Of a DNA stretch of 64,000 bases, positions 17,161 through 42,329 are shown in pieces. Below the pieces are notes generated by a model. It was not told where the DNA came from. It saw nothing but the letters and a program-made list of their open reading frames with translations, and ran no database searches. The stretch is from Synechococcus sp. (GTDB lineage Bacteria; Cyanobacteriota; Cyanobacteriia; PCC-6307; Cyanobiaceae): positions 2,232,203 to 2,296,202 of the forward strand of contig JBJBEO010000001.1 in assembly GCA_047284725.1 (NCBI GenBank), written 5' to 3'. Every line of letters starts with the position of its first letter. The stretch's first letter is position 1. Both the position numbers and the translations under genes were made by a program.

Positions 17161-17176
17161 GGCTGCAGAAGACTAT

Positions 17177-18242: not shown

Positions 18243-19232
18243 CTACTCCAAAGACTTTAGAATCAAAGCTTCCAAATCACTTACTCTGGCCTGCAAAGAA
18301 GAAATCTGAGAACGCAGTGAAATAATCTCACACTCTGCATAAAAGCCGAGCTTTCGTCCAACCCTTGGGAGCCATTCTGGGGAAGCAGACCATTCAAGAA
18401 TCCATAAACAGCCATCACCGCACTGGATCAGAAATTCACCAGTGTCAGACACTTCAAGGATTCGCCCAACAACTCCTTTTATAGATTCAGAAAAAGTAAG
18501 ATTTGCACGTGTAATGACAATTTTTTCGTCCACATCAAAGGTGAATGCGCCAGGGTGGGGAGAGCACGAAGCACGAATATGAGTCAATAAATCAACAGCT
18601 GTGTTATGCCAGTTTATCCATCCATCATCAGGGGAGCGCTTACCATAATAGGTAGCAGAATTATGATCCTGAGGACGTAACTCAACTGAGCCATCTGCGA
18701 GCCTTGGCAACAAATCATCTAGCGCGATGGCCTCTGCATTCAACAGCTTTTTTTCTACGGAGGACGCATCATCAGAAAAGTCAACACTAAAAGGCACTTG
18801 AACTAAGATTGGTCCATCGTCAACGCCCTCTTGCATAATGAAGAATGAAGCAGCTCCATCATTTTGCTCAAGAATCAACCAAGCCAATGGAGCCCTGCCA
18901 CGACCTAGAGGCAAGTTAGTAGGGTGAAATCCCACAAAACCGTCAGGAGGTATGGTCAACATAGCTATCGGGATTATTTGCGATAGACCAACCGCAAAAA
19001 CCCGATCAGGCCCAAAGTCTCTAAGAGACTGTGTGCATTCATCAACCCTTACAAATGATTGGTAAATAAATCCCGACTCTTTGGCGACCAAGGAAAGATC
19101 AACCCAACCACTTACATTGGAAGTATTTTGAGGCTGATAACCAAAAACAATGACATCCTTAAAACCATGTTCACAAAGCTTTCGAACAACAACACCTGTT
19201 GAACGAACACCACCAATGACTGCAATTTTCAT
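18243..19232 (-). CDS. sugar N-formyltransferase (Fmt-like) with C-terminal coiled coil
   Basis: GFHPTNLPLGRGRAP, GVDDGPI, PHPGA. Confidence 0.88.
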   Translation of the reverse strand: MKIAVIGGVRSTGVVVRKLCEHGFKDVIVFGYQPQNTSNVSGWVDLSLVAKESGFIYQSFVRVDECTQSLRDFGPDRVFAVGLSQIIPIAMLTIPPDGFVGFHPTNLPLGRGRAPLAWLILEQNDGAASFFIMQEGVDDGPILVQVPFSVDFSDDASSVEKKLLNAEAIALDDLLPRLADGSVELRPQDHNSATYYGKRSPDDGWINWHNTAVDLLTHIRASCSPHPGAFTFDVDEKIVITRANLTFSESIKGVVGRILEVSDTGEFLIQCGDGCLWILEWSASPEWLPRVGRKLGFYAECEIISLRSQISSLQARVSDLEALILKSLE

Positions 19233-19810
19233 AATTCAGGAGTAATACTTTTCTCACCAAAAACAACTACAGCTAGAGTTTGAAAAATAATCATTAGATC
19301 AAACAAAAACCCCGCATTGTCAATATATTCGACATCGTAGTTCCACCTTTGCTCCCACGAAAGAGTGGTATTACCATTTACTTGAGCAAAACCAGTCAAC
19401 CCAGGACGCATCTCCGTACGAATCTTCGCCCACCGAGGCATTGAATTAAAAGTCTCAAGAAGGCAGGGTCTAGGGCCGACAAAGCTCATATCCCCGATAA
19501 TTATATTTAAAATCTGAGGTAGTTCATCAATTTTGAAACGCCTTAAGAGTCCACCAAATGGAAATACACCATCTCCCCAATTCGAAGTTTGAGAAACTGG
19601 ACGGAAAAAATCTACGTGCATGGTTCTGAATTTGAGTATCGAAAACAAACGCCCCCCGAATCCGACTCTCTGTTGACAAAAAAACAAAGGACCTTTAGAA
19701 GAGCACTTTATTCCTATTGCAACAATTAAAAATAGTGGCACAAAAAGAATAACAAGCGACAAAGCAAAGGCAAAATCACAAAATCTCTTAAACAACAGAT
19801 AAGTACTCAT
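19229..19810 (-). CDS. initiating phosphoglycosyl transferase (small PglC-like sugar transferase)
   Basis: KRFCD, KFRTM, IDELPQ, MSFVGPRP, RPGLTG. Confidence 0.93.
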   Translation of the reverse strand: MSTYLLFKRFCDFAFALSLVILFVPLFLIVAIGIKCSSKGPLFFCQQRVGFGGRLFSILKFRTMHVDFFRPVSQTSNWGDGVFPFGGLLRRFKIDELPQILNIIIGDMSFVGPRPCLLETFNSMPRWAKIRTEMRPGLTGFAQVNGNTTLSWEQRWNYDVEYIDNAGFLFDLMIIFQTLAVVVFGEKSITPEL

Positions 19811-20487
19811 CGAGAATAGTCACCTATCAACATGAAAGCTTCAGCGGCAGAGGTTGCAATATTGGAACCCCTCAAGGTGGCAAGTGCACGAATAGTAGCT
19901 AAGGAACGCGGCAAGCCGTCGGGTTGCAGCTGACTGCCATAGGCCTTCATAGCCTCAATCTTTAAATCTATCGTAGATTCTATATTCACAAAAACATTGG
20001 GAAGAAAAGCATTTATTGGATACGGTGGAACAACATGAGTCTCCGAAAGTGTTTCATATGCCAAGATTTTACGAATCGAAGATGCAGATTTCAAATATGA
20101 GCGTGTTGCCACGTGAGCCCCGTAAGCTATAGCAGAGTGATCTTTATGCAGATCATAGAAAAAAGGAACGTAGACAACAGATGGCTGCACTCTACGCAGA
20201 ATATTTTCGACAACTTTATTTATTTTCCAGCTAGCAGTAAAGTCGAGACATGCCGCCGGTAGGTTTTCAAAGATCACATCGTGAATCCCCAATATCTCCG
20301 AGGAATTCAAACATTCATCACGAATCTTGTCCCAAAGTGAGTTAGGCCAAATTGGATGGTCGCCATCACCACTTCCAGTAAGAACCGAGAGGATGACATT
20401 GTCACCATCAGCAACATGCCGGGCAATAGTTCCACCAACCCCCAGAACCTCATCATCAGCATGAGGAGCGAAAACCAAAACACTCAT
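19807..20487 (-). CDS. PIG-L/LmbE family N-deacetylase
   Basis: APHADDEVLG, DLHKDH, AYETLSET. Confidence 0.92.
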   Translation of the reverse strand: MSVLVFAPHADDEVLGVGGTIARHVADGDNVILSVLTGSGDGDHPIWPNSLWDKIRDECLNSSEILGIHDVIFENLPAACLDFTASWKINKVVENILRRVQPSVVYVPFFYDLHKDHSAIAYGAHVATRSYLKSASSIRKILAYETLSETHVVPPYPINAFLPNVFVNIESTIDLKIEAMKAYGSQLQPDGLPRSLATIRALATLRGSNIATSAAEAFMLIGDYSR

Positions 20488-20618
20488 ACAATCAAAACCA
20501 ATTAGAGAGGAATACGTTATAACCAGGCTTAGCCCGCAGCAAAGAAAAACAAAAACAAGAAGGATAGCAAAAAACCATAAATTAGATCAAAAAAGGAACG
20601 TAAAAACGTAAACAAGCA

Positions 20619-21902
20619 TCATCTAACACCAAATCCAAAACGAATCATACGCGCTCGATACTTAAAGGCAGTATCTTCCAAGACTTTACACCAACGTTGG
20701 GACAATAGCTCCCTTGAAAAGCTACTCTCGGCCAAAGCACGGGCATTTGAACCTAACGAAGCCCTAAGAGGTGGATCATCAGCGATTGAAATCAAAGCTC
20801 GTGCAAAATCCTCAGGACTTCGTGGTGGAACAGTAAGACCAACTTTCTCTTCGCGAATTATTTCTGAAAGCCAACCAGGATAATTATTGATGACGGGCAA
20901 ACCACAGGACAAATAATCAAAGAACTTATTAGGAGACGTACCTCTATAAAAAGCCGGTACATCCTCAAGAACCATCAGACCAGCATGTACAGACTTAGCA
21001 AGAATACCGGCGAGTTCTGACTTTGGAATCGGGGGCATAAAATGGCAACTAGTAAGCACTTCATCATCTACACGTTGAACCAAAGAAGGTTTACATCGAC
21101 CATCACCAATGAACAAAAAATGTATATCAAGACGCCCCCAATATTTCAATACAGATGCAGTGTCGAGAACAGCGTCTAGTCCATTACAAATTCCATGAGC
21201 ACCAGTAAAGGCCACTACAAGAGAACCAGGATCCAAGGAAAGACCGGCAATTTTCTCCGGCTGCTTGATTTCACCAGACGGGAGGGGGTGAAAGAGATCA
21301 AGATCACAAGCATTTGGTATGTTCGTAATACGCGAAGGGAGCACGCCACGTTCGGCAATACCCTCACAGATCCCCGGGGCTAAGCCAATGCAGGCATCTG
21401 CCGAGTGATAACTAAGCCATTCAAGAGCAGAAAGGGCCGAGAGCACGAATGGGTTACGCAGCACTCCCATTGCACGGGGAAGCTCGGGCCAGAGATCGCG
21501 CACCTCGAAGACAAATGGTGTCCCTCTCAACCAACGGGCGACAATACCGGGAATACCAGCTGTGAGAGGAGTGGTGGTCGCAAAAACAAGATCCGCATCA
21601 GACCGAAGCACTAGCAGTAGGCTCTGCCAGCTATAGCGAAAAAACACCATGGCCCTCTCCAGCAAACCTGCGTAATTCGAGTAGTGAAGGTCGAACTCGA
21701 TGACCTCAATCCCATCCACCAGACCTCTGCGATTGCCATGTCGAAAGGGCCCGTCCAAGCCGGTCTTGGTGCGGGCATCTCGAAGGCACACCATCTGAAC
21801 CTGATTACCAGCCTCCACTAGAGAACGGGCTAGAGCGTAAGAGCGGGTGCCGGCAGCACCTGCAGGCGTAGAGAAATACTGGTGGTAATAAAGAACCTTC
21901 AC
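20619..21902 (-). CDS. GT4 glycosyltransferase (WbuB-like)
   Basis: FEVRDLWPE, SPNKFFDY. Confidence 0.9.
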   Translation of the reverse strand: MKVLYYHQYFSTPAGAAGTRSYALARSLVEAGNQVQMVCLRDARTKTGLDGPFRHGNRRGLVDGIEVIEFDLHYSNYAGLLERAMVFFRYSWQSLLLVLRSDADLVFATTTPLTAGIPGIVARWLRGTPFVFEVRDLWPELPRAMGVLRNPFVLSALSALEWLSYHSADACIGLAPGICEGIAERGVLPSRITNIPNACDLDLFHPLPSGEIKQPEKIAGLSLDPGSLVVAFTGAHGICNGLDAVLDTASVLKYWGRLDIHFLFIGDGRCKPSLVQRVDDEVLTSCHFMPPIPKSELAGILAKSVHAGLMVLEDVPAFYRGTSPNKFFDYLSCGLPVINNYPGWLSEIIREEKVGLTVPPRSPEDFARALISIADDPPLRASLGSNARALAESSFSRELLSQRWCKVLEDTAFKYRARMIRFGFGVR

Positions 21903-27613: not shown

Positions 27614-28755
27614 TCGGCACCCCGAGCAACCTCAAGGAGGCAATTTTTAATATTAGCATAATAGGAATAATAACCATGCTCAGATGTACTTAGAGAGCAA
27701 AGAGAATGCATTTGAAGAAGTGAGGCAGGAGCCGATTGAGCAAGATCAAGAAGGGCATCAAGAATATCTTGAGTATTAGACATAGTATTCACTACTCCAC
27801 AGCCATTCTTTAACCAATCAGCTTCTGACCCATCACCTATAGAAGCAAGTACAGGAATACCATGAGCGATGGCCTCGGATACAACTAAGCCGCCAAGACC
27901 AGGCATGACTAACAGGTCTTGACCAGTAAATACCCTCGAGAGCGCATCTCCTGACTGACGACCTAAAAAGGTGACATGCTGATTGATACCAAGATCTGTA
28001 GACAAATCCTGAAGATACGAATATAGTTCACCATCACCCACATAAGTAAGATGAGCGGAACGAAAATAATCGGAATTATTACTTATGAGTGGCAAAAGCG
28101 AACTAAATGCGCGCAAAAGAATATGAGGCTTTTTCGCGGCAGTCATAGCCCCAACATATATTAAATTGAAGCAGGAAGGGTTAGGATGGTAGGGCACTTC
28201 AGAAATGCAACGATTGTCGACTGTATTAACGGCACAATAGATTTTGGTGCTTGAAATCCCTAACTTTTTAAAATGGTCAATACCGCGATTACTGTACACC
28301 AAGGCAGCATCAGATAAACGCTCCACAAATGAAAATGGATATAACAAAAATTTCGACAAAGCGCTACGAGTAGGCAATGAGCCTAGACTCCATTGAATTA
28401 ATTTCTTGCGATAAATCTTACAATACGAGAAGGAGACAAGATTCATGAACAGATTAGATGCACCTTCGCAGACCACAACATCAGGAGAGAGTTGCTGCAG
28501 GGTATGAAATAAATCAAAAGAGAGAGGTATATAAGCTTTCCGTCCCATAAAGGAAAGAGTGATATTAAGAGAAGGTAGGCAAAGGCTATTGACAGAAGAA
28601 GTATCACCCGAGATAACTTTAGTGCCTACAAAGTCTTGAAAATGGATAAGAGTAAAGTCTATTTGAGGGTCGCGGGAGAGGTCCTCAAATAGAGGGATTC
28701 TCCAAAATTGAGCGACTCTGTATACAACGACTACCTTAATTTTCATATTGAACAT
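27610..28755 (-). CDS. GT4 glycosyltransferase
   Basis: YVGDG, PGLGGLVVSEAIAHGIPV. Confidence 0.85.
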   Translation of the reverse strand: MFNMKIKVVVVYRVAQFWRIPLFEDLSRDPQIDFTLIHFQDFVGTKVISGDTSSVNSLCLPSLNITLSFMGRKAYIPLSFDLFHTLQQLSPDVVVCEGASNLFMNLVSFSYCKIYRKKLIQWSLGSLPTRSALSKFLLYPFSFVERLSDAALVYSNRGIDHFKKLGISSTKIYCAVNTVDNRCISEVPYHPNPSCFNLIYVGAMTAAKKPHILLRAFSSLLPLISNNSDYFRSAHLTYVGDGELYSYLQDLSTDLGINQHVTFLGRQSGDALSRVFTGQDLLVMPGLGGLVVSEAIAHGIPVLASIGDGSEADWLKNGCGVVNTMSNTQDILDALLDLAQSAPASLLQMHSLCSLSTSEHGYYSYYANIKNCLLEVARGAE

Positions 28756-29479
28756 TCTTGAGACAGGCAGATCGAAGCCGTAAGTCGGAATTGAGGGATG
28801 AATAGGCGCGGTATATAAATCTACTATAACCTTCGCTTACTTTACGAGCACCATGAGAAACATCAGTGTCAAACATCAAAACATCTCCTGCTGAGAACGA
28901 TCTCGGGAGATATGATTCGGAATTTTCGTCAGACAAGATGGTTGATCTATTATCTATAGAGTCGTATAAACCACCTGTACGATTCAATGATTCTAGAGAT
29001 AAAACTCTAGTCATTTTATTCGTTATATGGGTATTAGGTATGATTTTAATTGGGCCAGCATCATAGGGTGTCTCTGTAAGATACACCCATGTTTTTATAG
29101 AACGGAGCCTGTCCCAATGAAGAACATTGCTGGGGGGATTGTTCGATGGAAAGGTTTGCTGTGAAATAAGCTGACGGTTAAACGCAATGTGAAATGGGGA
29201 TACATTGAAGGCTTTTGAAATAGTTTTGAGAAAAAAGGGATTAAAAAAGAAGCGAGTGGTATAAAGAAACTTATTTACATTTAATAGGACACGAGGCCTC
29301 TGGATCTGGCCAATTCGAACGGCTTGATCGTGAGAATTATCATATCGATAGGGATGGGCATTTATAATGTAATCGGCTTCTTGCCTAAGATGATGAAGAA
29401 AGTGCTCACCTATTAGCTTGGGAAGATAGCAATACCCATTAGCAATAAGAGAATGAGCGGCTTGGGTGGAGTTCTTCAT
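28736..29479 (-). CDS. PhyH-family Fe(II)/2-oxoglutarate dioxygenase
   Basis: NGYCYL, HWD, WVYLT...GP..IPNTH, AGDVLMFD..SHGA, distal R. Confidence 0.8.
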   Translation of the reverse strand: MKNSTQAAHSLIANGYCYLPKLIGEHFLHHLRQEADYIINAHPYRYDNSHDQAVRIGQIQRPRVLLNVNKFLYTTRFFFNPFFLKTISKAFNVSPFHIAFNRQLISQQTFPSNNPPSNVLHWDRLRSIKTWVYLTETPYDAGPIKIIPNTHITNKMTRVLSLESLNRTGGLYDSIDNRSTILSDENSESYLPRSFSAGDVLMFDTDVSHGARKVSEGYSRFIYRAYSSLNSDLRLRSACLKNVQYEN

Positions 29480-30207
29480 TTACAAATTCCAAAGAGAGAA
29501 GACTTGAGGCGCAATAACTTTAATAATAACGTTTGATATCTGTAACAAGTGAAGAGTGGGTTCCATCTGAAAAAGTATTTAAAAATAAGCGATAAAAGAA
29601 TAGCATCGCTTATATGAGAGGCAGTTAAAAAATCTTCAGAGTTAGGGTGGAGCTGAAAGTTTTCAGAAATACTTTTTCCAAGGTAAGGCCCTATATGAAC
29701 CTTATCATAGTTAGAAGGATTAGTAAACTCGAAACCTAAATATTTGATTGCAAGAGTACCATTGCAGTCAAACATAATGTCCCCCATAAATAAGGGTGAT
29801 ATGGAATGATATTGCAATAGGGACGTAAATCTAGGCAAGCAACTAACGACGAGACTGTTGATTGTAAAATCCGGAGAGTGAGGAAGCAAAAAATGGGTAG
29901 GCTTGCAATTTGCCATTTTAAGAATATTGAATAGCAAATGAAGTCGGTTAAAAAATAAAGATAGCCTGCGTTCGCGCTCGGAATTAGATACAGATTTAAG
30001 ATCGCGAAAAAAGGGCTCTGAAAAAGAGACAATCTTGCAATCATAAGAGCAAATAAATAAATTGAGAATAAAAATACGTAGAAATAAGTTGAATATAGCA
30101 AAAAAACTAAGTTGACGGAAGTCTCTACCTCGACCCAGATAAAAAGTAGAATCTTTAGATATATAGGAGAGTGAGCGGATGTGAGAATCGCCAAAAATAG
30201 CAATCAT
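29476..30207 (-). CDS. hypothetical protein with SGNH/GDSL-like motifs
   Basis: IFGDSH at the N-terminus and DKVH (DxxH) near the C-terminus. Confidence 0.6.
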   Translation of the reverse strand: MIAIFGDSHIRSLSYISKDSTFYLGRGRDFRQLSFFAIFNLFLRIFILNLFICSYDCKIVSFSEPFFRDLKSVSNSERERRLSLFFNRLHLLFNILKMANCKPTHFLLPHSPDFTINSLVVSCLPRFTSLLQYHSISPLFMGDIMFDCNGTLAIKYLGFEFTNPSNYDKVHIGPYLGKSISENFQLHPNSEDFLTASHISDAILLSLIFKYFFRWNPLFTCYRYQTLLLKLLRLKSSLFGICK

Positions 30208-31263
30208 TTAGTAAACCCAGGAGAAATAAAGGAAAGAAAACGCAGCTACAGCCAAGATATACCTGCTGAAATTATTCGCCAATAGACTCATATAGTGAGA
30301 AAGAGAAAGTGTGAGTAAAATAAACTCAAAAGGCCGGGAAAAGCGGGTGGCAAAGTGAAGATTGGATGAAAAAATAATATTAATAATAAGAGAACAAATA
30401 AAGGTAGCGACAAGAATTGTATCAAAACGAGCAGGCCTTAGGTTATTTAAAAAATTAGATCTAGATCGTATTAGCGAACGTAGCAAAGGCACGAGGCATA
30501 ATGCCAATGTAATGAACCCAGTGAAACGTAATCCTTGATACTTTGCAAGTCCCATATAACGAGTTCCCTGTGTCAAAGCAAAGACCTTAAAGAACGAAAT
30601 AGATATACCCAGAATAGGAATAAGGATAAAGATTAATACAATTAAAACTGACACCTGACGGTAACTAAGCTTTCGTGGGATGCGTAATTTGAAAAATAGA
30701 AGATGCTTCAGATTGAGAGCAATTGGGTAAAACAAAATTGCTGACAAAGATTGTATGTGAATGGAAACAGAAAAGAATAGCAATGAAAGTGTTAGGATGA
30801 TATTATCATAGAATGCGAATGCAAGCAAAACAATGCCAAGAGCAGTCCCGCTTCTCTGTTGGAAAACAAAAAGAATTGGAAAGTAAGAGGCAATAATTGT
30901 AGCAAGAGGGACGTAAGATACTGGTCGAAAATAAGACGCAGAAATCACTCTATAGGCGTATGCTATTATCCAAATAACAATTGCATCAAGACAGACATAA
31001 ATAAAGTGGATGTTATCCACAAGAGACTTTAAAAAAAAGACAATGAAAGTGTAACCAGGCTCAACGGATCCAGCACCGGCAAAAAATCCTATTGCACTCT
31101 TAATAATATACTCATAACCTTTAATATTGGTGTTTAGCGGGTGATATATGTAAGTAGCAACACCGGCATAGCAGAAAAATGGAATCGTTATAAGGAATAG
31201 ACGAGAACCTAGGAAGGAGGCAGTTATGAAAAGAAGTGAGCTAAGTAAATATAAACTAGACAT
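30208..31263 (-). CDS. multi-TM EpsG/Wzy-like polysaccharide polymerase
   Basis: About 10 hydrophobic segments, EPGY, QQRSGTA, SIH. Confidence 0.7.
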   Translation of the reverse strand: MSSLYLLSSLLFITASFLGSRLFLITIPFFCYAGVATYIYHPLNTNIKGYEYIIKSAIGFFAGAGSVEPGYTFIVFFLKSLVDNIHFIYVCLDAIVIWIIAYAYRVISASYFRPVSYVPLATIIASYFPILFVFQQRSGTALGIVLLAFAFYDNIILTLSLLFFSVSIHIQSLSAILFYPIALNLKHLLFFKLRIPRKLSYRQVSVLIVLIFILIPILGISISFFKVFALTQGTRYMGLAKYQGLRFTGFITLALCLVPLLRSLIRSRSNFLNNLRPARFDTILVATFICSLIINIIFSSNLHFATRFSRPFEFILLTLSLSHYMSLLANNFSRYILAVAAFSFLYFSWVY

Positions 31264-31267
31264 TTAA

Positions 31268-32317
31268 TCAAGAGAGGCAATCCCATGAAACTCGTTCACC
31301 ACGTTGGATATCCCTGGAGACCTTTTTACCTAGTAACTCCTGATAAAATCTAGGATGGAGACCGAAGCCTGGCCTGATTGCTCTCATATTGGATGATGAG
31401 ATAACCCCACCTTGTTTGATATCTTCAGTGAAGTACAAAGATCTTTTAAAAATAGAGTTACTTTTTTCAGCTTTAGAAGTGCCGTATGAAACATTTCCCA
31501 AGGATGACATAGCATTGATAGTAGAGGCCTTCAAGGCTCTAAGTTGCTGAGGCTCGATGCTGAAATCAGAATCAACACCGCCTAGGTCACGAGAATCAGT
31601 AAAATGTTTTTCAATAAAACACGCGCCTAAAGCCACACTGACAATCGCTGAGGTATTGTCAATTGTGTGGTCGCTTAAACCTACAAGAGTTTGAAATGTT
31701 TGTTGTAAGTTAGGTAATGACATAAGATTCATATCAGAAGGGGAAGCCGGATAAGCACTAGTACATTTCAACAAGATAATTTTAGTGGCTCCTGAGCTGT
31801 GGAGAACCGATAAAGCATCGCTTATCTCACCAATAGAGGCCATACCAGTAGAAACAATGATAGGTTTGTTAGTTCTAGCAACCCTTTTTAAGAGTTCATA
31901 ATCAACAATCTCAAAAGAAGCTATTTTATATGCAGGGCAATTAAAGGATTCTAATAAGTCGACAGACTCAAGATCAAATGGCGAAGAGAAAAGAGTTATG
32001 TTGTTTGCTTTGGCAAACTCAAAAATCTGCTTATGCCAAGAAAATGGAGTACACGCTTTTTTATACAATGAATAAAGTGTTTCTCCACTCCATAGACCTG
32101 ATTTAATACAGAAATCCGACTGGGAGGAATCCAAGGTTAGAGACTGTGGCTCATAAGATTGGATTTTTATTGCATCAGCCCCATTATCGTGAGCAAGCTT
32201 GATTAGATACAGCATCCGGTCCAATGATCCATTGTGATTGCCGGATATTTCAGCTACAACGTAAGGAGGATCTGCAGGGCCACCGATCGAAGTTTCAAGG
32301 ATATTAATTGGTTTCAT
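31268..32317 (-). CDS. pseI: pseudaminic acid synthase
   Basis: AEISGNHNG, YKIASFE, KCTSAYP, GLSDHT, IEKHFT, C-terminal SAF/AFP domain; ATG 32317. Confidence 0.93.
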   Translation of the reverse strand: MKPINILETSIGGPADPPYVVAEISGNHNGSLDRMLYLIKLAHDNGADAIKIQSYEPQSLTLDSSQSDFCIKSGLWSGETLYSLYKKACTPFSWHKQIFEFAKANNITLFSSPFDLESVDLLESFNCPAYKIASFEIVDYELLKRVARTNKPIIVSTGMASIGEISDALSVLHSSGATKIILLKCTSAYPASPSDMNLMSLPNLQQTFQTLVGLSDHTIDNTSAIVSVALGACFIEKHFTDSRDLGGVDSDFSIEPQQLRALKASTINAMSSLGNVSYGTSKAEKSNSIFKRSLYFTEDIKQGGVISSSNMRAIRPGFGLHPRFYQELLGKKVSRDIQRGERVSWDCLS

Positions 32318-32963
32318 ATTTTGAGATTTGAAGTTTGAAGGTTTGGTTTCTGTGTCTAAAGTGTACAGGGTAATGGTGCGGATCTGAGACTCGAAGCAAG
32401 TCAAATATGTCATTTATGGTAGATTCTATATCAACATATGAATCCTCCGGCCTCCTTCTTTTATAAAAACTAGAAGGTCTATCATCCTGAGGCAATGGGA
32501 TTATATTATTGTTTATCTTATTGGAGACAATCTCAAACAGCTTAAGATGGTTATCAAACATAATCTGGGAGATTTCATTATGAAGTGCATTATCAGGAAT
32601 ATGCATTAAAACCTTGGCCCAGATCGGGCCACAATCTAGTTCAACATCAGCAGAAATAGCTGACATCACTATTGATGTCTTACCTTCTAAAATTTGCCAA
32701 ACATGGGGAGACCATCCTTTACCATCGGGCAAATCACTCGCATGAATTACAATGCAATGTTTAAACCTTGAGAGGACGGATAATGATATGATATGTGGAT
32801 ATGAAACACAGAAAACAGTGGCACCTTCAGGGACGTCATCGATGTCAAAGACAAGTTCGTAGTTGTCAAAGGGAAAATGAAGTGAAGGCGACTTAAGTTC
32901 TTTATAAGAAGAATAGAAAGTTAAGAAAGAATGGTTTTTGTTGCCAAGAAGAATGTAATTCAT
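32304..32963 (-). CDS. short formyltransferase-family protein between pseG and pseI
   Basis: IHASDLPDGKGWSP, LDCGPI, YKRRRPEDS, LLRVSDP..YP. Confidence 0.8.
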   Translation of the reverse strand: MNYILLGNKNHSFLTFYSSYKELKSPSLHFPFDNYELVFDIDDVPEGATVFCVSYPHIISLSVLSRFKHCIVIHASDLPDGKGWSPHVWQILEGKTSIVMSAISADVELDCGPIWAKVLMHIPDNALHNEISQIMFDNHLKLFEIVSNKINNNIIPLPQDDRPSSFYKRRRPEDSYVDIESTINDIFDLLRVSDPHHYPVHFRHRNQTFKLQISKYETN

Positions 32964-33976
32964 TTTTGAGATAGGAAGTTGGAAGCTATAGAAGCGATTC
33001 GTTTGCAGCCCAAACCATCAACCATAGAAGAGGCTCTTTGAGAAAGCAGATTTACCCAGTTGACATCTTCCAGTCTTTGAAAAAGCTCAATAAGCTTAAC
33101 TCTGTCGAATGAACGACCAATTGATAGTGAGTCTTGTAATGAATATATCATTCCTAGTCTATTGAGGGTGGTATGGACCTGAAGTTGATTGTCAATGATA
33201 GGTAATTGTGCACTAGGTAACCCAATACAGGCGCGCTCCCACGAGGAGCTTCCTGAAGCACCTATACACGCATAGGAGGTTAGATACATAGGAGATAGAT
33301 CGGACTGATCGACAAAAAGTTGAATATTAAGATCTTGCTCATAAATCTGGGATTGCAGAGAGGATAGATGAGGGGCTGAAGAGAGAAGAGGTACTATGTA
33401 AGTATATTTATTTGAACAGGGAATGTCATTAAGAGCTGCTAACAATAAATTAGTCAGGCCAAAGGGGTCAGTAGATCCAAAGGATATAAGGATTTTTGAG
33501 TCTGAAAGGGAGCGAGTCCACTTGGCACGATGTTGAGAATATGACCCTGACAACTGTGTAAAAGAAGGGCCAAAATAGCAACTTTTAGGCGGTGACTTAG
33601 GGGCCAATGCGCTAGGATTTATTAAAATATCATAACCTGGTGGCAGTGATGTCAAGAGATCATGAATAATAACATTTACAGAGGATCTGAAGAGTGCATA
33701 ATCTAAGATATTACCAGGAGAATAGTGGTCAACGAAAAGAACATCACATGCAAAAAGAGAGTCACATGTCGAGACAAAGTCGATACGTATATTCTTAATA
33801 TATGGAGCAAGATAAGGGATAGATTCTGGAGAAATCAAAAAAGTAACATTTGCCTTGCAATCAAGCATAGTGATTGCCAAAGGCAAAGACCTAAATAAAT
33901 GGCCCATCCCTAAAGAGGGACTGCAATCCAAGCGAAAAACTATATTCTTACCAGATAGAAAATCAACATTCATCAA
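32960..33976 (-). CDS. pseG: UDP-2,4-diacetamido-2,4,6-trideoxy-altropyranose hydrolase
   Basis: FRLD..GMGHLFR, VDHY, FGSTD, GSSSWERACIGLP, DNQ, DGLG. Confidence 0.85.
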   Translation of the reverse strand: MMNVDFLSGKNIVFRLDCSPSLGMGHLFRSLPLAITMLDCKANVTFLISPESIPYLAPYIKNIRIDFVSTCDSLFACDVLFVDHYSPGNILDYALFRSSVNVIIHDLLTSLPPGYDILINPSALAPKSPPKSCYFGPSFTQLSGSYSQHRAKWTRSLSDSKILISFGSTDPFGLTNLLLAALNDIPCSNKYTYIVPLLSSAPHLSSLQSQIYEQDLNIQLFVDQSDLSPMYLTSYACIGASGSSSWERACIGLPSAQLPIIDNQLQVHTTLNRLGMIYSLQDSLSIGRSFDRVKLIELFQRLEDVNWVNLLSQRASSMVDGLGCKRIASIASNFLSQK

Positions 33977-34994
33977 CGAACATTTCGCCTTTAATATAAT
34001 CCCTAGAATAGGGCTTGCCTAAATAATTGAATATGATGTCTTTTGAGGAAATCCCAGTACCAGGCCTAAGGAATTGAAAGTGACTTGAATCGATTATTTG
34101 CCCACATTGAACAGGCTGTGCAAGGTATGCTGACTTATAATATTTGAGTGAATCAGAAAGATCTGAATCAGATGCAGTGAGCACAGGTTGGCCAAGCGCC
34201 CTATGACACTTTTTCACTTCTTGCATCCAATCATAAAATTCACTAGGTTCTAGAGATTTCCAATGACCATTCTGGTGTGTAGTTCGAGAAAGCGTGAGGC
34301 GCTTTTCTAACATAGACGCTCCAAGCCCAATCGACATGAAGTCATAGGAATTATCTCTTCCTTGCGGAGTATATCCAAATTGGTAGCCATTAAGATGTAA
34401 TTCTTTCATTGCACTCATATTCATCTGATCTACTTGATTAGTGTGTAAATCGAAAAGAACAAAAACGTCTGAGCCACCTGAATTAATATAAAAATCTCTT
34501 AAAGTATTTAGCTCATTAATATCAATAGTGCCGCTATCAAGGATCAACGGCTTTTTATTTTTTGCAAGCCCCTGAATCATACGAAAATGATTCAAACTCC
34601 AAGTGCAAATTTTGTTGCAACTAAGATCCAATGAATTAATTAGCGGAATTAAAGATTCAACATGGCATGTAACAACCAAATCAACACTATGATGATCACA
34701 ATGGCGCTTAATTTTATGCCACTCTTCGCATGAAAAGGTTAAGCGGGAGAACATTTTGCACATATTCTCGGTAACTTTGGAACCAGAATATGTTGGATAG
34801 GTATACTCGACTGATCTGTCACCTAAAAGTTCTAATGGATCTAAAGCCTGGAATTTAACGGCATTGACACCAATTTCGGATGCAACTTCGATAAGCAACA
34901 ATGCACGCTTAATATCACCGGAGCATGTCAAGCCAAAGTCAGCCATGATAGCAAGATCTGACTTTGTTACTTCTAAGACAGGCAGGACGGACAT
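33963..34994 (-). CDS. divergent NeuB/PseI-family protein lacking the canonical metal ligands
   Basis: AVKFQ, KPLILDSG, LGASMLEKRLTL, RPGTGI SAF domain; NH, SDH and EKH motifs altered. Confidence 0.8.
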   Translation of the reverse strand: MSVLPVLEVTKSDLAIMADFGLTCSGDIKRALLLIEVASEIGVNAVKFQALDPLELLGDRSVEYTYPTYSGSKVTENMCKMFSRLTFSCEEWHKIKRHCDHHSVDLVVTCHVESLIPLINSLDLSCNKICTWSLNHFRMIQGLAKNKKPLILDSGTIDINELNTLRDFYINSGGSDVFVLFDLHTNQVDQMNMSAMKELHLNGYQFGYTPQGRDNSYDFMSIGLGASMLEKRLTLSRTTHQNGHWKSLEPSEFYDWMQEVKKCHRALGQPVLTASDSDLSDSLKYYKSAYLAQPVQCGQIIDSSHFQFLRPGTGISSKDIIFNYLGKPYSRDYIKGEMFVDEC

Positions 34995-34996
34995 AG

Positions 34997-35602
34997 TTAG
35001 TTGATTTTTTCGAATAAGAACCAGTTTAAATCATCTTGGGGAGATACAGGATCAAATCTCCAACAGAAGCCATAATCAACCAACCTTATGGGTCGATCTT
35101 GCATAAACTCAGCAGCAAAGTCTCTTTTCCATAAGCGAGACTCGTGACCACGATAATTAATTTCTTGGGGTTGGGTAGAAAAATACTCTTTGATAAGTAT
35201 ATATTTTGAAGAGCAACAATACAACTTATCATATACAACGGGAAGCATTTCTGGATTAATATGAATAAGTACGCCGCATGTAAATGTGAGTTCCGCTGAT
35301 GTTGAAAGAGGGAAAGAATCAGAAAGAGATTGATTCAATACATTATGATTAGAAGAAGCAATTTGTGCTGCTTTAGTATTAATTTCAATACCGGTGGTAA
35401 CGGTGCTTGGCGTCAGAGTTTTAATAGCATCAAGGTTTAAACCTCTGTTGCATCCAAACTCGAGTACGCTATCTAGATTACCAGTCCTAGATATTAATCT
35501 AGACCAAAAGAACAAGTTTGCTTGGGCTTGGTCATTTCGAGAATTGCGTACCGTATATTCATCACCAAAATCGCCGCTCCAAAAATTTTCTTGATCGTTC
35601 AC
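34997..35602 (-). CDS. pseudaminic acid biosynthesis-associated methylase
   Basis: QENFWSGDFGDEYT.RN, LEFGCNRG, GVLIHINP, YRGH..LWKRDFA; GTG 35602 likely start. Confidence 0.9.
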   Translation of the reverse strand: MNDQENFWSGDFGDEYTVRNSRNDQAQANLFFWSRLISRTGNLDSVLEFGCNRGLNLDAIKTLTPSTVTTGIEINTKAAQIASSNHNVLNQSLSDSFPLSTSAELTFTCGVLIHINPEMLPVVYDKLYCCSSKYILIKEYFSTQPQEINYRGHESRLWKRDFAAEFMQDRPIRLVDYGFCWRFDPVSPQDDLNWFLFEKIN

Positions 35603-35675
35603 AGAATTGAATAAATAATAAAAAAAATCTAAACTAGATATCGATGTGCATTGCCTGAAAAGTGGCAATTGTAAT

Positions 35676-36737
35676 CTAACTTAAGAATCGAGCAATCGAA
35701 TCGTAGGCAGTTTGCGGCAGCTCAATAGTGCAACCAAAGCGGCTAGCTTCTTGAACGCTTTCAAAGTAATTGACAGATACAGATCGCTGCTCATCCACAT
35801 CTCTAAAAACCACAATGTCTTGAGGTGGGGCGGGAATAGAAAAAATAATAGATGACTGAAAAGTAAAATACTTGCGATAACAAACTCGACTAAAATCAAT
35901 CATGCTTGAGGTGTCAATAGACAAGCCATATTTAGTTAGCAAATGAAGTGTATTTTTGTCATCTAAAACACGGGGATGTGGCCTAATAACTAATTTGCTT
36001 GAATTATTTTTTAGGCTTAATTCTGCTAAGACTTTGAGAAGATATTTTTGCTCATTGGGAGTGTACGGCAAGCAGACTAATAAAGAATCTTGCTTGCTGA
36101 TAAGCTGCTTAAGCCTAGGCAAAGGTTCATAGATAACTTCTACATCACAATAATAAACGAGGTCTAAGAAATGGGAAAATCTATTTTTAGTCCTAACATA
36201 AAATTTAGTCGGAGAATTAAAAAACGAATTGAGCTTTTGAATAAACTGCTTTGAATAAAAGATATTTGAATTACAGTCGCCATGCTGCATATCCGCGAAA
36301 GCTAAATCATATTTCCTGCAAAAATCGGCTATGATTAATCCATAAGGCGTATACAGAGCGGGTATTAATACTACTTTTGATTCAAGGCAAGAATTTGCAT
36401 TAAATTTGAGGGAGAAGAGATAGCCCACATAAAGATAAGCAAGCAGCATACTAAAATACTGAGTAATACTGCCTTTCAAAAAAGCATGCTTTCTGCATCT
36501 ATATTCGAATTGTATAAAAGCAGTGAATAAACTAAATAGGGAGCTTGCAAATTTTTTTTTGCTAAAAATATAACCTACTACCTTAATGAACAGAGATCTG
36601 GGATTAGAGATATAATATGTAGAGCAATTCTGTGGCAAGAAGGGTGACTTGTAGAAGTTATTTGAAAAGTATTTTTCAAGGCCGATTGCCAAATAAGTCA
36701 TTTGATCAAAGTAAGTTAATTGAAAGCTTGAGGGCAA
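35676..36737 (-). CDS. hypothetical protein, candidate nonulosonic-acid transferase; start uncertain (frame open to 36851 without an upstream ATG)
   Basis: DMQHG, IRPHPR, FQSSII motifs; located in the pse cluster. Confidence 0.5.
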   Translation of the reverse strand: MPSSFQLTYFDQMTYLAIGLEKYFSNNFYKSPFLPQNCSTYYISNPRSLFIKVVGYIFSKKKFASSLFSLFTAFIQFEYRCRKHAFLKGSITQYFSMLLAYLYVGYLFSLKFNANSCLESKVVLIPALYTPYGLIIADFCRKYDLAFADMQHGDCNSNIFYSKQFIQKLNSFFNSPTKFYVRTKNRFSHFLDLVYYCDVEVIYEPLPRLKQLISKQDSLLVCLPYTPNEQKYLLKVLAELSLKNNSSKLVIRPHPRVLDDKNTLHLLTKYGLSIDTSSMIDFSRVCYRKYFTFQSSIIFSIPAPPQDIVVFRDVDEQRSVSVNYFESVQEASRFGCTIELPQTAYDSIARFLS

Positions 36738-37401: not shown

Positions 37402-38994
37402 TTATTTGGTCAAAGTAATTACATTACTAGAATATGCTGCAAAAAGCTGTTCATGAGTTACAACAATAATCAACTTATTGCTTGATTTCTCTACAATTGT
37501 CCGGATAACTTTAGTGGCTGCTGTAATGTCTAATCCAGAAGTTGGCTCATCAAGTAAAACTACTTCTTGAATGCCAACAAGTGATCGTACTACAGAAATA
37601 CGTTTTTTTTCACCACCTGAGAAATTTGAAGCATTCAGGTTTCTATTGAACAAATCATCGGGAAAACCCCAACTTTTTAGTATAGATAAACCTTCCTCTA
37701 TGTAATCGGAATCAAGGCCCCTGAAAAACTTTATGTTATCTTCAACATTGGAATCAAGGATGAAGCTGTCCTGCATAGAGTAACTGATACTATTTGGCTT
37801 GGTTTCTATATTGTTATAGAAAAGCTCAGACATAGAGGAGGACAAATTATCTAAGAAAGTAGATTTCCCAAGACCAGAAGCGCCCATTATTACGTATAGT
37901 CCTGGATTAGTCAGATCAAATTCTATTCGGCTGGGTTTAGTATTTTCTGTTGCATAACATTGAAGTGTTTCTGAACATATGATGTCGTATGGTCTATAAG
38001 AGCCTCGCAACTGGTCTGCTGATGAACAGATTGACTCAATTTGTTTAAGAGCTACTGGCTCAGCAAATTTAAAAGACTGGTTAGCTATGGACAATTTGTT
38101 TAAAGATGGGAGAAGTCGCAGCAAGCTCAATGTTATAAACGCTACGTTTTCAGAATTCGAGGTAGTCGACAATAAAATAGCAATTGCTAAAAGTGAAAAA
38201 GCACCGAACGCCTCTAAGAAAGATCTAGAAATTGGCTTTAGTGATAGAAATTTTCCGTCAGCCTTATTAGAAGCTGTAAGTTTGTCAATCAAGAAATATT
38301 TTGCGATATCTATAACATTAAAAGCAGAAGCTTCTTTTCTGAGTGAAAACAAGTTATTTATAGATTCTGTCCACTCTTTTTCATAAGCAAGTCTTTTTCT
38401 GCCAAAAGATTTACTAAAAGGTGTAAACACAAACTGAATAATGGTATATCCAGCCAACAATATTAATAGTGAAACTAAAATAGAAAGTGGCTCGATGAAT
38501 ACAAAAATCAGGATAAATAGTAGTAAGAGCAGGAATTCCGACAGAATATTGGCAAATGGCATGAATATTTGACCAGTAATCATTTGCACTTCGTTTGTAA
38601 GAGCTGAAAACAAGCGACCAGACTCTTTGGAACTGCTGCGAGAAGTGGACTGAAAAGATTTAGTGAGCAGTGCTTTTTGAAGGCCAGATTTTAGACACTC
38701 TAAATAATGAAAATTAAATCGATAACTTACTGAAAGAATAGCTGCGCGCAAAACCCAAAATAAGATAATGAATATTGAGGCTTGGAACTTTGTCTCAAAG
38801 CTAAAAAAGTAAAAATTGACATTACTAGAATTGGCAGAGAATTGTGTTAAAATTGCTCCAATTGAGGCTATACCAATAATTTCTAGTGAAGCAATTAAAA
38901 GATTGGATAATATGTAGAGTGGAAAATACTTATTCTTTCTGGGAAACTCTGCGATTTGGAAAAGTTTTGCAACCGTGCGAATGTTATACGACAT
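37402..38994 (-). CDS. ABC transporter permease/ATP-binding fusion (PglK/Wzk/MsbA-like flippase)
   Basis: N-terminal TMD, GASGLGKS, FSGGEKKR, VLLDEPTSGLD, VTH. Confidence 0.88.
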   Translation of the reverse strand: MSYNIRTVAKLFQIAEFPRKNKYFPLYILSNLLIASLEIIGIASIGAILTQFSANSSNVNFYFFSFETKFQASIFIILFWVLRAAILSVSYRFNFHYLECLKSGLQKALLTKSFQSTSRSSSKESGRLFSALTNEVQMITGQIFMPFANILSEFLLLLLFILIFVFIEPLSILVSLLILLAGYTIIQFVFTPFSKSFGRKRLAYEKEWTESINNLFSLRKEASAFNVIDIAKYFLIDKLTASNKADGKFLSLKPISRSFLEAFGAFSLLAIAILLSTTSNSENVAFITLSLLRLLPSLNKLSIANQSFKFAEPVALKQIESICSSADQLRGSYRPYDIICSETLQCYATENTKPSRIEFDLTNPGLYVIMGASGLGKSTFLDNLSSSMSELFYNNIETKPNSISYSMQDSFILDSNVEDNIKFFRGLDSDYIEEGLSILKSWGFPDDLFNRNLNASNFSGGEKKRISVVRSLVGIQEVVLLDEPTSGLDITAATKVIRTIVEKSSNKLIIVVTHEQLFAAYSSNVITLTK

Positions 38995-38997
38995 GTG

Positions 38998-39744
38998 CTA
39001 ATCCAAAAATTTATCGATGATGTAAAGATCGTCTGAGAGAGTTTGGAATCCAGATTGAGCAAGTTTAAACTCATATTCATGATCAATATCAATAGACGCA
39101 ATATTATTCATCAAGAAGCCACCAATTGAAAAATCTGCTGGTGATTTATTTAATAAGGAATGAATCAAGAAAGTAGAAACACAACCATTTGAGAAATAAG
39201 TTTGAGGGCATTCAGTCGATTTAATGTTTTTGTAGGGACTATCCGCAAAGGTATGCGAAAGTCTAATAATGCAATTAGCATCAATATTTTCTGCAGATGA
39301 CCAAGCATTAAAAGGAGGCTTGGAGGATGGAGAAACGCTTATTATGCGGTCTAGATTACTATTAAAAGCCAGATTTTGTATATTTTGTATGGACTCAATA
39401 CTGCTAAATGGAGACGTAGGCAGAATGCATGTGACAACATCATCATTATATTTTATTGGCGAAATAAGTACATCAATAAGTACATCAATAATTGTTGATG
39501 GATCTTTTGCTAATAACGCAGGCCTTTCTCGAACATGAACTTTACCTAGATTTGTGTACCTACTCAAATAATCAAGCTGTCTATTTACCTCGGGTTTATT
39601 TTCCGAGGATATATGTATATCTTCGGTAGTTGCATGTAATGCACGAATGACAGCGATTTGAAATAATGACAGATGCTTATAGAAGGGAATAAAGTTTTTG
39701 GACTTTAATCTTGATGATGAGTGCTTTGCTGGAATAATAATCAT
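38998..39744 (-). CDS. pseF: CMP-nonulosonate synthetase (PseF/NeuA-like cytidylyltransferase)
   Basis: IIPAK..S.RL..KN, LPTSPF, SIDID. Confidence 0.8.
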   Translation of the reverse strand: MIIIPAKHSSSRLKSKNFIPFYKHLSLFQIAVIRALHATTEDIHISSENKPEVNRQLDYLSRYTNLGKVHVRERPALLAKDPSTIIDVLIDVLISPIKYNDDVVTCILPTSPFSSIESIQNIQNLAFNSNLDRIISVSPSSKPPFNAWSSAENIDANCIIRLSHTFADSPYKNIKSTECPQTYFSNGCVSTFLIHSLLNKSPADFSIGGFLMNNIASIDIDHEYEFKLAQSGFQTLSDDLYIIDKFLD

Positions 39745-40898
39745 AATTGTAACAACGCGTTCTTGAGAGTATCGCGAACAGTCAGTTGATCATCGTTACT
39801 GAGCTTAGTATGCAGAGGTAAAGTCAAAGCTTTGGCGTAATATTTTTCAGATTTATCAAGTAAATCATACTTGTCGAGATTTTTGTAGAAAGGCTGTGTA
39901 TGGATGGGCTGATAATGAACGTTCACGCCTATATTAAGAGATTTAAGGTGCTGAAAGATTGCCGATTTACGCTCTATATCATTATCAGAAAGCTGAATAA
40001 CAAATAAATGCCAAGAGGATGTTTTAAGTTGTGATCGTTGTGGCAGGCAAATAGGCAGATCTGCCAAGATCTGGAAATAATTATCAACAAGATCTTTCCT
40101 GCGCTTTAAGAAATATTCCAACTTATGCAGTTGCGTTATCCCGAGAGATGCTTGAATGTCAGTCATTCTATAATTAAAACCTAGACATATTTGTTGGTAT
40201 TCCCATAACTCAAGGGTACTCTCAGTAGAGTTTTCTCGCGTGACTCCATGTGAACGCAAAAGTTTCATTTTTTCGTATAGGGTTTTACTATTAGTCAAGG
40301 CCACTCCTCCTTCACCAGTAGTAATCATTTTTACAGGGTGAAAGCTAAAAACAGTTATGTCCGAGAATTTGCACGAGCCAACAAGAGTATCTCGATAAAT
40401 TGCGCCAACAGCATGAGAAGCATCTTCAATAATTTTAAAACCATACTCCTTAGAAAGTTTATAAATCTCATACATGTCACAAGAAGCGCCAGCAAAATGA
40501 ACTGGTATTAGAATTTTTGGAAGTTTATTAGCTAGTTTTGCTTTTAACAGTTTTTGTCTCAGAGAATCTGTGCAAATATTATAAGTCTCTGGATTGATAT
40601 CTACAAAGTCAACTTTGGCTCCACACATCAATGCACAATTAGCACTTGAAACAAAGGAGTTAGGTGAGGTCCACACTATATCATCATTTGTTAATCCTAA
40701 AGATAGGCATGCAATATGAAGCGCACTTGTAGCACTATTAACTGCAATGCCGAAACTAGAACCAGTAATCTGGCAAATTGCCGACTCAAAGGATGGAACC
40801 ATTGGTCCTTGAGTCAAAAAGTCTGAATTAAGAACATTAATAACTTGTTCGATATCTCTTTCGTCAAGATCTTGAGACCCATAGGTGTTAAGCTTCAT
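39741..40898 (-). CDS. pseC: UDP-4-amino-4,6-dideoxy-N-acetyl-beta-L-altrosamine transaminase
   Basis: YGSQ, LTQGP, EDASHA, FSFHPVK.ITTGEGG, LRSHG, GFNYRMTD. Confidence 0.92.
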   Translation of the reverse strand: MKLNTYGSQDLDERDIEQVINVLNSDFLTQGPMVPSFESAICQITGSSFGIAVNSATSALHIACLSLGLTNDDIVWTSPNSFVSSANCALMCGAKVDFVDINPETYNICTDSLRQKLLKAKLANKLPKILIPVHFAGASCDMYEIYKLSKEYGFKIIEDASHAVGAIYRDTLVGSCKFSDITVFSFHPVKMITTGEGGVALTNSKTLYEKMKLLRSHGVTRENSTESTLELWEYQQICLGFNYRMTDIQASLGITQLHKLEYFLKRRKDLVDNYFQILADLPICLPQRSQLKTSSWHLFVIQLSDNDIERKSAIFQHLKSLNIGVNVHYQPIHTQPFYKNLDKYDLLDKSEKYYAKALTLPLHTKLSNDDQLTVRDTLKNALLQL

Positions 40899-40910: not shown

Positions 40911-41900
40911 TTAGTGAGAATAATTATTCGAAATCCAGGCAGAGAGAGTCTCCGATGTCATCCAATTTCTATTAGTATTACTAGAATAACAAAAATTTGG
41001 GTCAACAAGAGTTCCGTTTTTTATTCTTGACGGGCATTCGTTCCAGTTATTTATTTGTGGTAGAATCTTAAAGTAATTATCATATTCAAAGGTAGACAAA
41101 GAGTCTTCGCATCCAATCATTTGTTCATGAAGCTTTTCTCCGGGTCTGATGCCAACTATTTCGTAGTCCGAGTTCGGACGTACTGCTTTGGCAATATCTA
41201 ATATATTCATAGACGGTATCTTCTTAACATATATTTCTCCTCCCATCATATCATCAAATGCATGCCATACCAAATTAACGCCCTGCTCGAGAGTAATCAT
41301 AAACCTCGTCATGCCTGGATCAGTAATTGGTGTCTTTTTAGAGCTAGGTAAGGACAAGAAATAAGGAATTACTGAGCCTCTTGAACCCATTACATTTCCA
41401 TATCTAACAACGGCAAACTGTGTTTGGTGCCCTAAAGCGTAGGAGGAATTACTAGCTACAAATAACTTATCAGAGGCTAGTTTAGTTGCGCCATATAAAT
41501 TAACTGGGCTGCTGGCTTTATCAGTAGATAAAGCTACTATTTTTTTAACCCCTTGATCAATGGCAGCATCGATCAAATTCATGGCACCGTCAATATTTGT
41601 TTTAATGCATTCAAAAGGATTGTATTCTGCGATAGGGACAATCTTAGTTGCGGCCGCATGTACTACATAATCGACACCATGAAGAGCTCTGTACAAACGG
41701 CTTTTATCTCTAACATCACCAATAAAAAACCTTACGCGATCATCATTGTTGTATTTTTTTGCCATTTCCCATTGTTTCATCTCGTCGCGAGAAAATATAA
41801 TTACTTTTCTTGGATTATACTTTTCTAAAGTTAAAGGGACAAAAGCGTTACCAAATGATCCAGTTCCGCCCGTTATCAAAATCACAGAATTTTCTAACAT
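40911..41900 (-). CDS. pseB: UDP-GlcNAc 4,6-dehydratase (inverting)
   Basis: GGTGSFG, SRDEMKQ, AEYNP, STDKA, YGATK, RYGNVMGSRGSV. Confidence 0.95.
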   Translation of the reverse strand: MLENSVILITGGTGSFGNAFVPLTLEKYNPRKVIIFSRDEMKQWEMAKKYNNDDRVRFFIGDVRDKSRLYRALHGVDYVVHAAATKIVPIAEYNPFECIKTNIDGAMNLIDAAIDQGVKKIVALSTDKASSPVNLYGATKLASDKLFVASNSSYALGHQTQFAVVRYGNVMGSRGSVIPYFLSLPSSKKTPITDPGMTRFMITLEQGVNLVWHAFDDMMGGEIYVKKIPSMNILDIAKAVRPNSDYEIVGIRPGEKLHEQMIGCEDSLSTFEYDNYFKILPQINNWNECPSRIKNGTLVDPNFCYSSNTNRNWMTSETLSAWISNNYSH

Positions 41901-42329
41901 TGCTAAAAACTTAGATAACATTAATTTTAGCATATGGGGGCCAGCGCGTGTCAGCAGCACTGCAGTATCGCAAGCCCATACTTTGACACTGTGCTTCAAT
42001 CCCCAGCAAAAAAATTCAACAGTAGTGGTTAAGGGTTTAAATGATTTGAAACTTTTGGCGACTTTGCAAGGCGAAGATTCTCAATATCCATACAAAGCGC
42101 AGAGTAACTTGCTGAAACCGAGTCGGGGACTCTGGGACGCGGCGAGAAGCTTTACTTTGATGATATCAGTTAATGACATGCAAAGTTGTTATTTGACAAG
42201 CGCAGGCGCAGACACCTCTAGCAAGCTGGCGCAAAGACTATGCTAAATGTTTGCTATATTTTGGCTTGATCTATACTTTTTATGTGGGCATTATGTACTT
42301 TTCATTCTTTCCGTATTTGAGACCATAAA

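Follow-up and report, generated by a model that had tools for sequence, protein, structure and literature searches.

The open reading frame at 33963..34994 (minus strand) of the window (the whole 64,000-nucleotide stretch of Synechococcus sp. DNA that was analysed) encodes a NeuB-family protein of 343 aa in which both Mn-binding histidines of NeuB synthases are replaced. Judged by sequence, it is a member of a conserved clade under purifying selection, the selection being shown in its relatives, and the family is a NeuB variant with a rebuilt active site, real and conserved, whose reaction we infer. The preferred account, held tentatively and at a little under even confidence, is that the His-less protein is a Mn- and PEP-independent aldol-type tailoring enzyme, for example a C4 epimerase, acting on pseudaminate made by the neighbouring PseI. 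The protein likely performs an extra step in making a surface sugar. The family is apparently previously undescribed, and a full-text literature search (titles and starts of abstracts, few subscription journals) returned no description of a histidine-less NeuB family.

The protein scores 113.6 bits against the Pfam NeuB model PF03102 (cut-off 22) and falls under the cut-offs of both relevant equivalogs, with 115 bits for PseI (TIGR03586, cut-off 340) and 144 bits for NeuB_NnaB (TIGR03569, cut-off 400). An AlphaFold model made from the 50-row alignment (pLDDT 96.4) matches PseI 8h2c at TM 0.84 and NeuB 1xuu/4ipi at TM 0.83 over its full length (Foldseek), and a structural alignment pairs residues 4-343 with 4ipi and 8h2c (Z 31). 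The TIM-barrel plus SAF architecture proposed in the preliminary description is borne out by structural alignment, although Pfam SAF gives no call in this protein. Because the modelled structure aligns over 4-343 and SAF is called in many homologs, the presence of a C-terminal antifreeze-like/SAF domain is supported. Structure searches found no solved structure of the His-less family. The two NeuB proteins of the genome are 24% identical to each other, and no third was found in the genome.

The preliminary description had reported an intact full-length frame with four altered motifs (ADFGLTC, FDLHTN, GYTPQG and EKRLT) and a retained KFQ, near a canonical pseI; all of this was confirmed, and RPG is retained also. 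The neighbouring PseI, 1.65 kb away, keeps the standard motifs AEISGNH, KCTSAYP, GLSDHT and EKHFT. With pocket numbering taken from an alignment to Neisseria NeuB, the altered positions (NeuB to His-less) are E25>D19, F112>H111, S132>T131, G133>W132, E134>S133, S154>D153, S213>T209, H215>Q211, H236>R232 and D247>G243. In the His-less protein the N184-Y186 loop has lost two residues and bears H184, which pairs with N184 in some alignments and with Y186 in another. In the available part of PMC11339185, NeuB is described as a domain-swapped dimer in which Mn is bound by two histidines (in a homolog numbered two lower), the PEP phosphate by three serines and an Asn, the carboxylate by two lysines, and the sugar by Asp, Gln, Tyr and an Arg from the other subunit; a list of pocket residues is given in the accessible text of PMC6795526. 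In the His-less protein, Q211 and R232 replace the Mn-binding histidines H215 and H236, and the PEP-phosphate serines S132, S154 and S213 are not retained, T131, D153 and T209 standing in their places. Trp occupies the sugar-specificity position, for which PMC7371886 gives Gly among Neu/Leg synthases and Phe for PseI. A large NeuB survey (PMC8208679) discusses variants of E134, F112, F288 and R314, and its main text, in the part available, makes no mention of H215 or H236. As far as alignment can tell, the protein retains the site for the carboxylate and also the swapped Arg, but has other residues at the metal site and in part of the phosphate site. The earlier view that this is not a standard Mn-dependent synthase therefore holds at the level of sequence, H215 and H236 being absent and the scores lying under the equivalog cut-offs.

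A homolog search returned 51 proteins at E 1e-30 or better, of which 50 were aligned and one partial sequence was omitted; pairwise identity goes down to 29%, with a median of 46%. The residues K53, Q55, T110, K129, E234 and R314 (NeuB numbering), which include the PEP-carboxylate residues K53, T110 and K129 and of which the last is R310 within RPG, are found in 50/50 aligned homologs and H215, H236, S154, N184 and D247 in 0/50, proportions to be read with the knowledge that the first search used exact query words and the genome scan motif patterns, by which motif conservation is inflated. Conservation reaches 90% or more at 14 of the 15 changed pocket positions and at 62 of 303 other positions. 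Since the same residues are fixed across 50 homologs with identity as low as 29%, the motif changes exceed chance. The family was widened by a word-free search of 1.84 billion representatives, which returned identical motifs, and by a search with a sister protein. Arg stands at the H236 position in 201 of the 291 proteins that measure 300-400 aa, 49 of them core and 152 sister; within this set H215 occurs in 0/201, and D153, W132, K47, K128 and E230 occur in 201/201. H184 and R310 are each conserved in 99-100% of the core and sister proteins, and the S132 position is Ala in 64% of the 152 sisters. In 76 canonical proteins, S132 is conserved at 99%, S154 at 99% and S213 at 100%.

In a FastTree phylogeny of 97 sampled rows the family forms a single branch (support 99), with the core clade nested within it (support 100). 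The dN/dS ratio is 0.032-0.173 in the five unsaturated of 171 pairs, the window gene being without an unsaturated partner, and 0.047-0.087 for PseI (3 close pairs). Among 40 listed of 93 metagenome contigs, four differences were seen in the gene, two synonymous and two outside the pocket, a number too small to weigh. The proposal that the substitutions would mark a conserved clade under purifying selection was thus upheld. A second divergent NeuB family of 13 sequences (P0080, P0083, P0085, P0103, P0104, P0111, P0114, P0120, P0128, P0143, P0145, P0174 and P0201) was noted on one branch (support 96); it keeps H215, has Thr at H236, mostly has Asp at S154 and Glu near D247, and possibly has a KDO8PS-like metal site. 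No fused family member was found among the 120 listed of 430 longer proteins (624-2000 aa), which is weak evidence; these proteins score at most 276 bits and contain an EKH-type histidine motif.

Besides this genome, the core clade is present in 18 GTDB genomes, which by their titles belong to Alpha- and Gammaproteobacteria, Bacteroidota and Thermodesulfobacteriota. It was found in 0/60 relatives of this genome and in 0/200 roseobacter-family genomes drawn at random, and the wider family in 2/300 and 1/350 genomes of two other draws. A plasmid search gave matches of 25-27% identity only among 15 listed of 116 records; GenBank phages gave no match to the family, and the core profile gave none to virus contigs. 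A metagenome scan yielded at least two family loci among 80 listed. Nine IMG/VR virus records (L193-L201) carry a His-less and a canonical NeuB in an ulosonate cluster. The rarity and patchiness of the family, together with the low GC of its surroundings (35-39% in the island, 59% genome-wide), suggest a horizontally moving island gene. Two copies of the family were found in genome G068: a decayed one in the pse locus (L151:8030-8611), missing a large internal stretch, and an intact one of another subclade (L008), which lies on another contig beside an integrase fragment.

The genes around the His-less ORF, all on the minus strand, are ordered pseB-pseC-pseF-ABC-orphan-methylase-His-less NeuB gene-pseG-formyltransferase-pseI. 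PseB, an inverting UDP-GlcNAc 4,6-dehydratase (40911..41999; TIGR03589, 498 bits, cut-off 408), the aminotransferase PseC (39741..40898; TIGR03588, 504 bits, cut-off 424) and the canonical pseudaminic acid synthase PseI (31268..32317; TIGR03586, 454 bits, cut-off 340) are over their cut-offs; the PseI frame is given from an ATG start, and an upstream TTG would lengthen it to 32413. The PseG-like UDP-sugar hydrolase (32960..33976; TIGR03590, 119 bits, under the cut-off of 154) is divergent, as is the PseF-like CMP-transferase (38998..39744; PF02348; TIGR03584, 30 bits vs 206). The nearest relative of the latter (45%) is that of locus L001, where the closest pseB and a closely related family member also lie. 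A formyltransferase (32304..32963; PF00551) likely N-formylates the 4-amino sugar, standing in for PseH; the genome has no match to two PseH/GNAT queries at E 1e-4. PseB, PseC, the formyltransferase, PseG, PseI and PseF would make up a complete route, and since no PseH-like gene was found its product is probably 7-N-formyl pseudaminate.

The His-less ORF shares 14 bp with pseG, and the TIGR03587 pseudaminic-acid-associated SAM methylase (34997..35668; 229 bits, cut-off 112) ends 2 bp ahead of its start codon. Beyond the methylase lie an orphan ORF of 353 aa (35676..36737) and an ABC transporter with ATPase and membrane parts (37402..38994; PF00005). The orphan has no Pfam or NCBIfam match; its nearest named Atlas clusters are polysaccharide-biosynthesis families (0.90-0.92, 3 of 10 agreeing), a weak lead to a candidate glycosyltransferase for the CMP-sugar. 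On the other side of pseI are an EpsG-family membrane protein (30208..31263; PF14897), likely a polysaccharide polymerase, a 243-aa ORF (29476-30207) with neither a Pfam/NCBIfam match nor a counterpart in the fetched loci, and a PhyH-like Fe/2OG dioxygenase (28736..29479; PF05721) with H121, D123 and H209 conserved by alignment. A promoter scan gave no more than chance level. The same island contains a second sugar pathway at 14093-21902, comprising a PglF-like dehydratase, an aminotransferase, a PglD-like acetyltransferase, a formyltransferase, an initiating transferase, a PIG-L deacetylase and a GT4, which suggests synthesis of an N-formylated amino-deoxy sugar.

The company kept by the family was compared with that of control genomes, with the caution that 8 of the 18 core genomes are roseobacters and co-occurrence counts overstate independence. 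As the preliminary description anticipated, the clade co-occurs with PseI, which is over cut-off in 18/18 other core genomes vs 93/300 genomes of a random Rhodospirillales draw; exactly two NeuB-like matches were found in 16/18 core genomes. A His-retaining NeuB stands beside the family in 4/4 bacterial sister loci and 9/9 virus loci, and the sole core locus without a canonical NeuB (L031) is a 7.7-kb fragment. The canonical synthase is the next gene in 7/9 virus loci and in L015, L017 and L018. Sister and virus loci have a CMP-transferase, pseB/pseC where the locus extends that far, usually a SAM methyltransferase (L200 showed none) and, in many cases, WbqC and PIG-L; in most sister loci the partner synthase has Asp rather than Phe at the specificity position. 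A CMP-transferase adjoins the family gene in 12/18 GTDB loci; in the window the two are 4 kb apart. In Mantel tests on 14-16 genomes with three near-duplicates removed, family distances correlate with those of pseB (r 0.54), pseC (0.55) and pseF (0.48), all at p<0.01, and with those of pseI at 0.26 (p 0.075) and of the methylase at 0.09.

The TIGR03587 methylase is found in 18/19 clade genomes including this one, several times on another contig, and in 7/93 PseI-positive controls and 1/200 roseobacter-family genomes. The suggestion that the protein works as a tailoring enzyme with the abutting methylase stands as to co-occurrence and is weakened as to tight pairing, and an obligate pair was rejected: 11/12 methylase genomes of the Rhodospirillales draw, and G118, are without the family, TIGR03587 is missing from the family-bearing G280, and the distances are nearly uncorrelated. 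The Fe/2OG dioxygenase, traced with a profile built from 11 clade sequences, occurs in 13/19 clade genomes vs 1/58 controls and 0/3 sister genomes, a small family nearly restricted to core-clade genomes. Replacement of PseG by the His-less protein was hinted at by PseG being present in 10/19 clade genomes vs 66/80 controls (80/93 PseI-positive genomes) and in 0/5 family-bearing virus records, two of them complete. It was rejected because PseG is also found in 0/5 virus records without the family, and because 5/9 of the absences accompany a formyltransferase-PseI-DUF218 module that occurs without the family too. That trio was seen in seven genomes (G061, G064, G065, G066, G069, G470 and G513; loci L004, L005, L006, L009, L149, L179 and L185) with a PseG match in 0/7; a non-orthologous UDP-sugar hydrolase is one possible identity for the DUF218 protein.

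In the preferred aldol-type reading, the C1 carboxylate of the free ulosonate would be gripped by K47, Q49, T109 and K128, and R232, at the His236 position, would place a positive charge at the C4 oxygen, replacing Mn. D153 and H184 in the former phosphate pocket would manage the C2-C3 enolate, and the Pse-type N-acyl sugar would be read by W132 and by R310, the latter from the swapped C-terminal domain. Once the C3-C4 bond had been cleaved and closed again, the sugar would emerge as a 4-epimer or in a related rearranged form, ready for activation by PseF; its further tailoring would fall to the methylase and dioxygenase, neither being an obligate partner. Action on the product of the synthase is proposed because the carboxylate site is kept while Arg occupies the metal site and Asp and His the phosphate site, and because the family was seen without a working synthase only once, on the 7.7-kb fragment. 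The aldol-type reading is also favoured because family distances track pseB, pseC and pseF better than pseI, because the gene so often abuts the CMP-transferase, because the specificity position is Trp where the synthases have Gly or Phe, because the changed pocket sites are highly conserved and the family's dN/dS resembles that of PseI, and because L-ribulose-5-phosphate 4-epimerase gives a precedent for the mechanism. It is weakened by the T131 and T209 hydroxyls that remain in the core clade and by the ability of Arg to bind phosphate; by D19, E230, H244 and H184, which could make a relocated metal site; by the Asp of most sister-locus partners at the specificity position; by the 4 kb to pseF in the window; and by a pocket geometry that depends on alignments in which the placement of H184 varies.

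A rather doubtful alternative is that the protein is a second synthase that joins PEP to a Pse-pathway sugar bearing some modification (a methyl, a hydroxyl or a different acyl group), either Mn-free with R232 or with a relocated metal, so that two ulosonates would be made. The six invariant NeuB residues K53, Q55, T110, K129, E234 and R314, the hydroxyls of T131 and T209 and the synthase-like position adjoining the CMP-transferase agree with such an activity. KDO8P synthases that need no metal are known and the identity of the metal makes no difference to NeuB, according to the available part of PMC12531865, where NeuB is said to act mainly by approximation of substrates, the metal's role being unclear, which favours a metal-free synthase. 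The Asp at S154 in 201/201 proteins and the Ala at S132 in most sisters speak against it, as does the loss of the ManNAc ligands D247 and Y186, although Asp at 154 need not bar PEP, since the second divergent family mostly has it and keeps H215. An independent synthase should moreover sometimes be alone, whereas the family was never found as a genome's sole NeuB (PseI in 18/18). The presence of a synthase beside it would suit a lyase or proof-reading enzyme that splits surplus or wrongly acylated ulosonate into pyruvate and sugar, a recycling role for which the chemistry and the residue pattern would be identical to those of the aldol-type reading; but a house-keeping lyase should accompany PseI widely, and a family so rare (0/200, 2/300 and 1/350 genomes), tied to tailoring genes and retained in virus clusters suits building better, which makes recycling quite improbable.

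An unlikely possibility, already raised in the preliminary description and now weakened, is that the protein is a non-catalytic subunit or binding protein, either pairing by domain swap with the canonical synthase into a heterodimer, where it would supply R310 and alter the specificity of the synthase, or retaining the product for a later enzyme. It would account for the canonical NeuB wherever this can be judged, often as the next gene, and for the near-invariance of R310 in an enzyme type known as a domain-swapped dimer (PMC11339185, available part). In two virus loci (L199 and L200) the partner synthase has 278 aa and no C-terminal domain; canonical NeuBs of reduced length are, however, also found in virus fragments that have no family member. 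In the virus fragments L204-L206 a His-retaining NeuB of 231-250 aa, its C-terminal domain absent, stands beside pseC and TIGR03587-like methylases. In a quick tree of 53 rows, its controls taxonomically skewed, the partner PseIs come out polyphyletic, with four label changes of which at least two are forced by well-supported branches; the partner in G061, encoded on another contig, clusters at 98% with the PseIs of two family-less genomes. Partners span PseI-type and other NeuB types, the Mantel correlation with pseI is not significant, and a scaffold would not need the new invariant polar residues in its own barrel pocket, which is strongly constrained. Decay of a pseI duplicate has a parallel in the decayed copy of G068, yet the protein is only 24% identical to the adjacent PseI, its substitutions are fixed in 50 homologs, dN/dS is low and the branch is separate (support 99-100); strain-specific decay, which the preliminary description had named as the outcome that would overturn it, is excluded, and a decaying duplicate has a negligible chance of being the explanation.

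It is possible, though the odds are against it, that the family represents the first case of a new reaction on the NeuB fold, namely an aldolase-type step without metal that together with the methylase and dioxygenase would convert pseudaminic acid into an undescribed ulosonate, either the 4-epimer or a C-methylated ten-carbon sugar known by mass spectrometry without genes. If this were true, phages would carry a pathway for coating themselves or their hosts; that ulosonate clusters can be phage-borne is evident from the virus records. A ten-carbon ulosonate of Magnetospirillum is described, with no genes named in the available parts of the sources, in the SugarBase preprint (bioRxiv 10.64898/2026.04.20.719630) and in PMC8157484; the connection was set aside as a lead only, Magnetospirillum being 0/18 of the named core-clade records. 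At least 201 family proteins, wherever named, are labelled 'N-acetylneuraminate synthase', 'SpsE' or 'legionaminate synthase'. Such labels wrongly present its members as ordinary synthases, so that counting NeuB genes to predict the type of sugar probably gives wrong answers in these genomes. The family also permits a direct test of the metal requirement in NeuB chemistry, supplies candidates for the genes behind ulosonate isomers or ten-carbon variants that have no known enzymes, and places the uncharacterised TIGR03587 methylase in a context for the first time.

Among known systems, PseI (TIGR03586; 8h2c, Campylobacter jejuni) is the best structural match, sharing the barrel and C-terminal domain, an aromatic residue at the sugar-specificity position and a common gene cluster, but the His-less protein is only 20-24% identical to it, lacks the SDH and EKH histidines, has S154>D and D247>G, and has a two-residue deletion in the CxSYP loop. 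NeuB/SiaC of Neisseria meningitidis (TIGR03569; 1xuu, 4ipi) shares the fold (TM 0.83) and the six retained pocket residues, and differs by H215>Q, H236>R, E25>D, F112>H, G133>W, E134>S, S154>D, D247>G and the exchange of the N184/Y186 loop for a His. Metal-independent KDO8P synthases, which have the superfamily fold in common with the His-less protein (TM about 0.55), are still PEP synthases with the phosphate site intact, whereas in the His-less protein the phosphate pocket is altered too. They provide a precedent for metal loss (PMC12531865, available part). L-ribulose-5-phosphate 4-epimerase is an analogy only. That enzyme has another fold and needs a metal. What it shares with the proposed reaction is the breaking and re-forming of a C3-C4 bond by an aldol mechanism, and it is in this respect that it serves as the working analogy (PMC12531865, in the part available).
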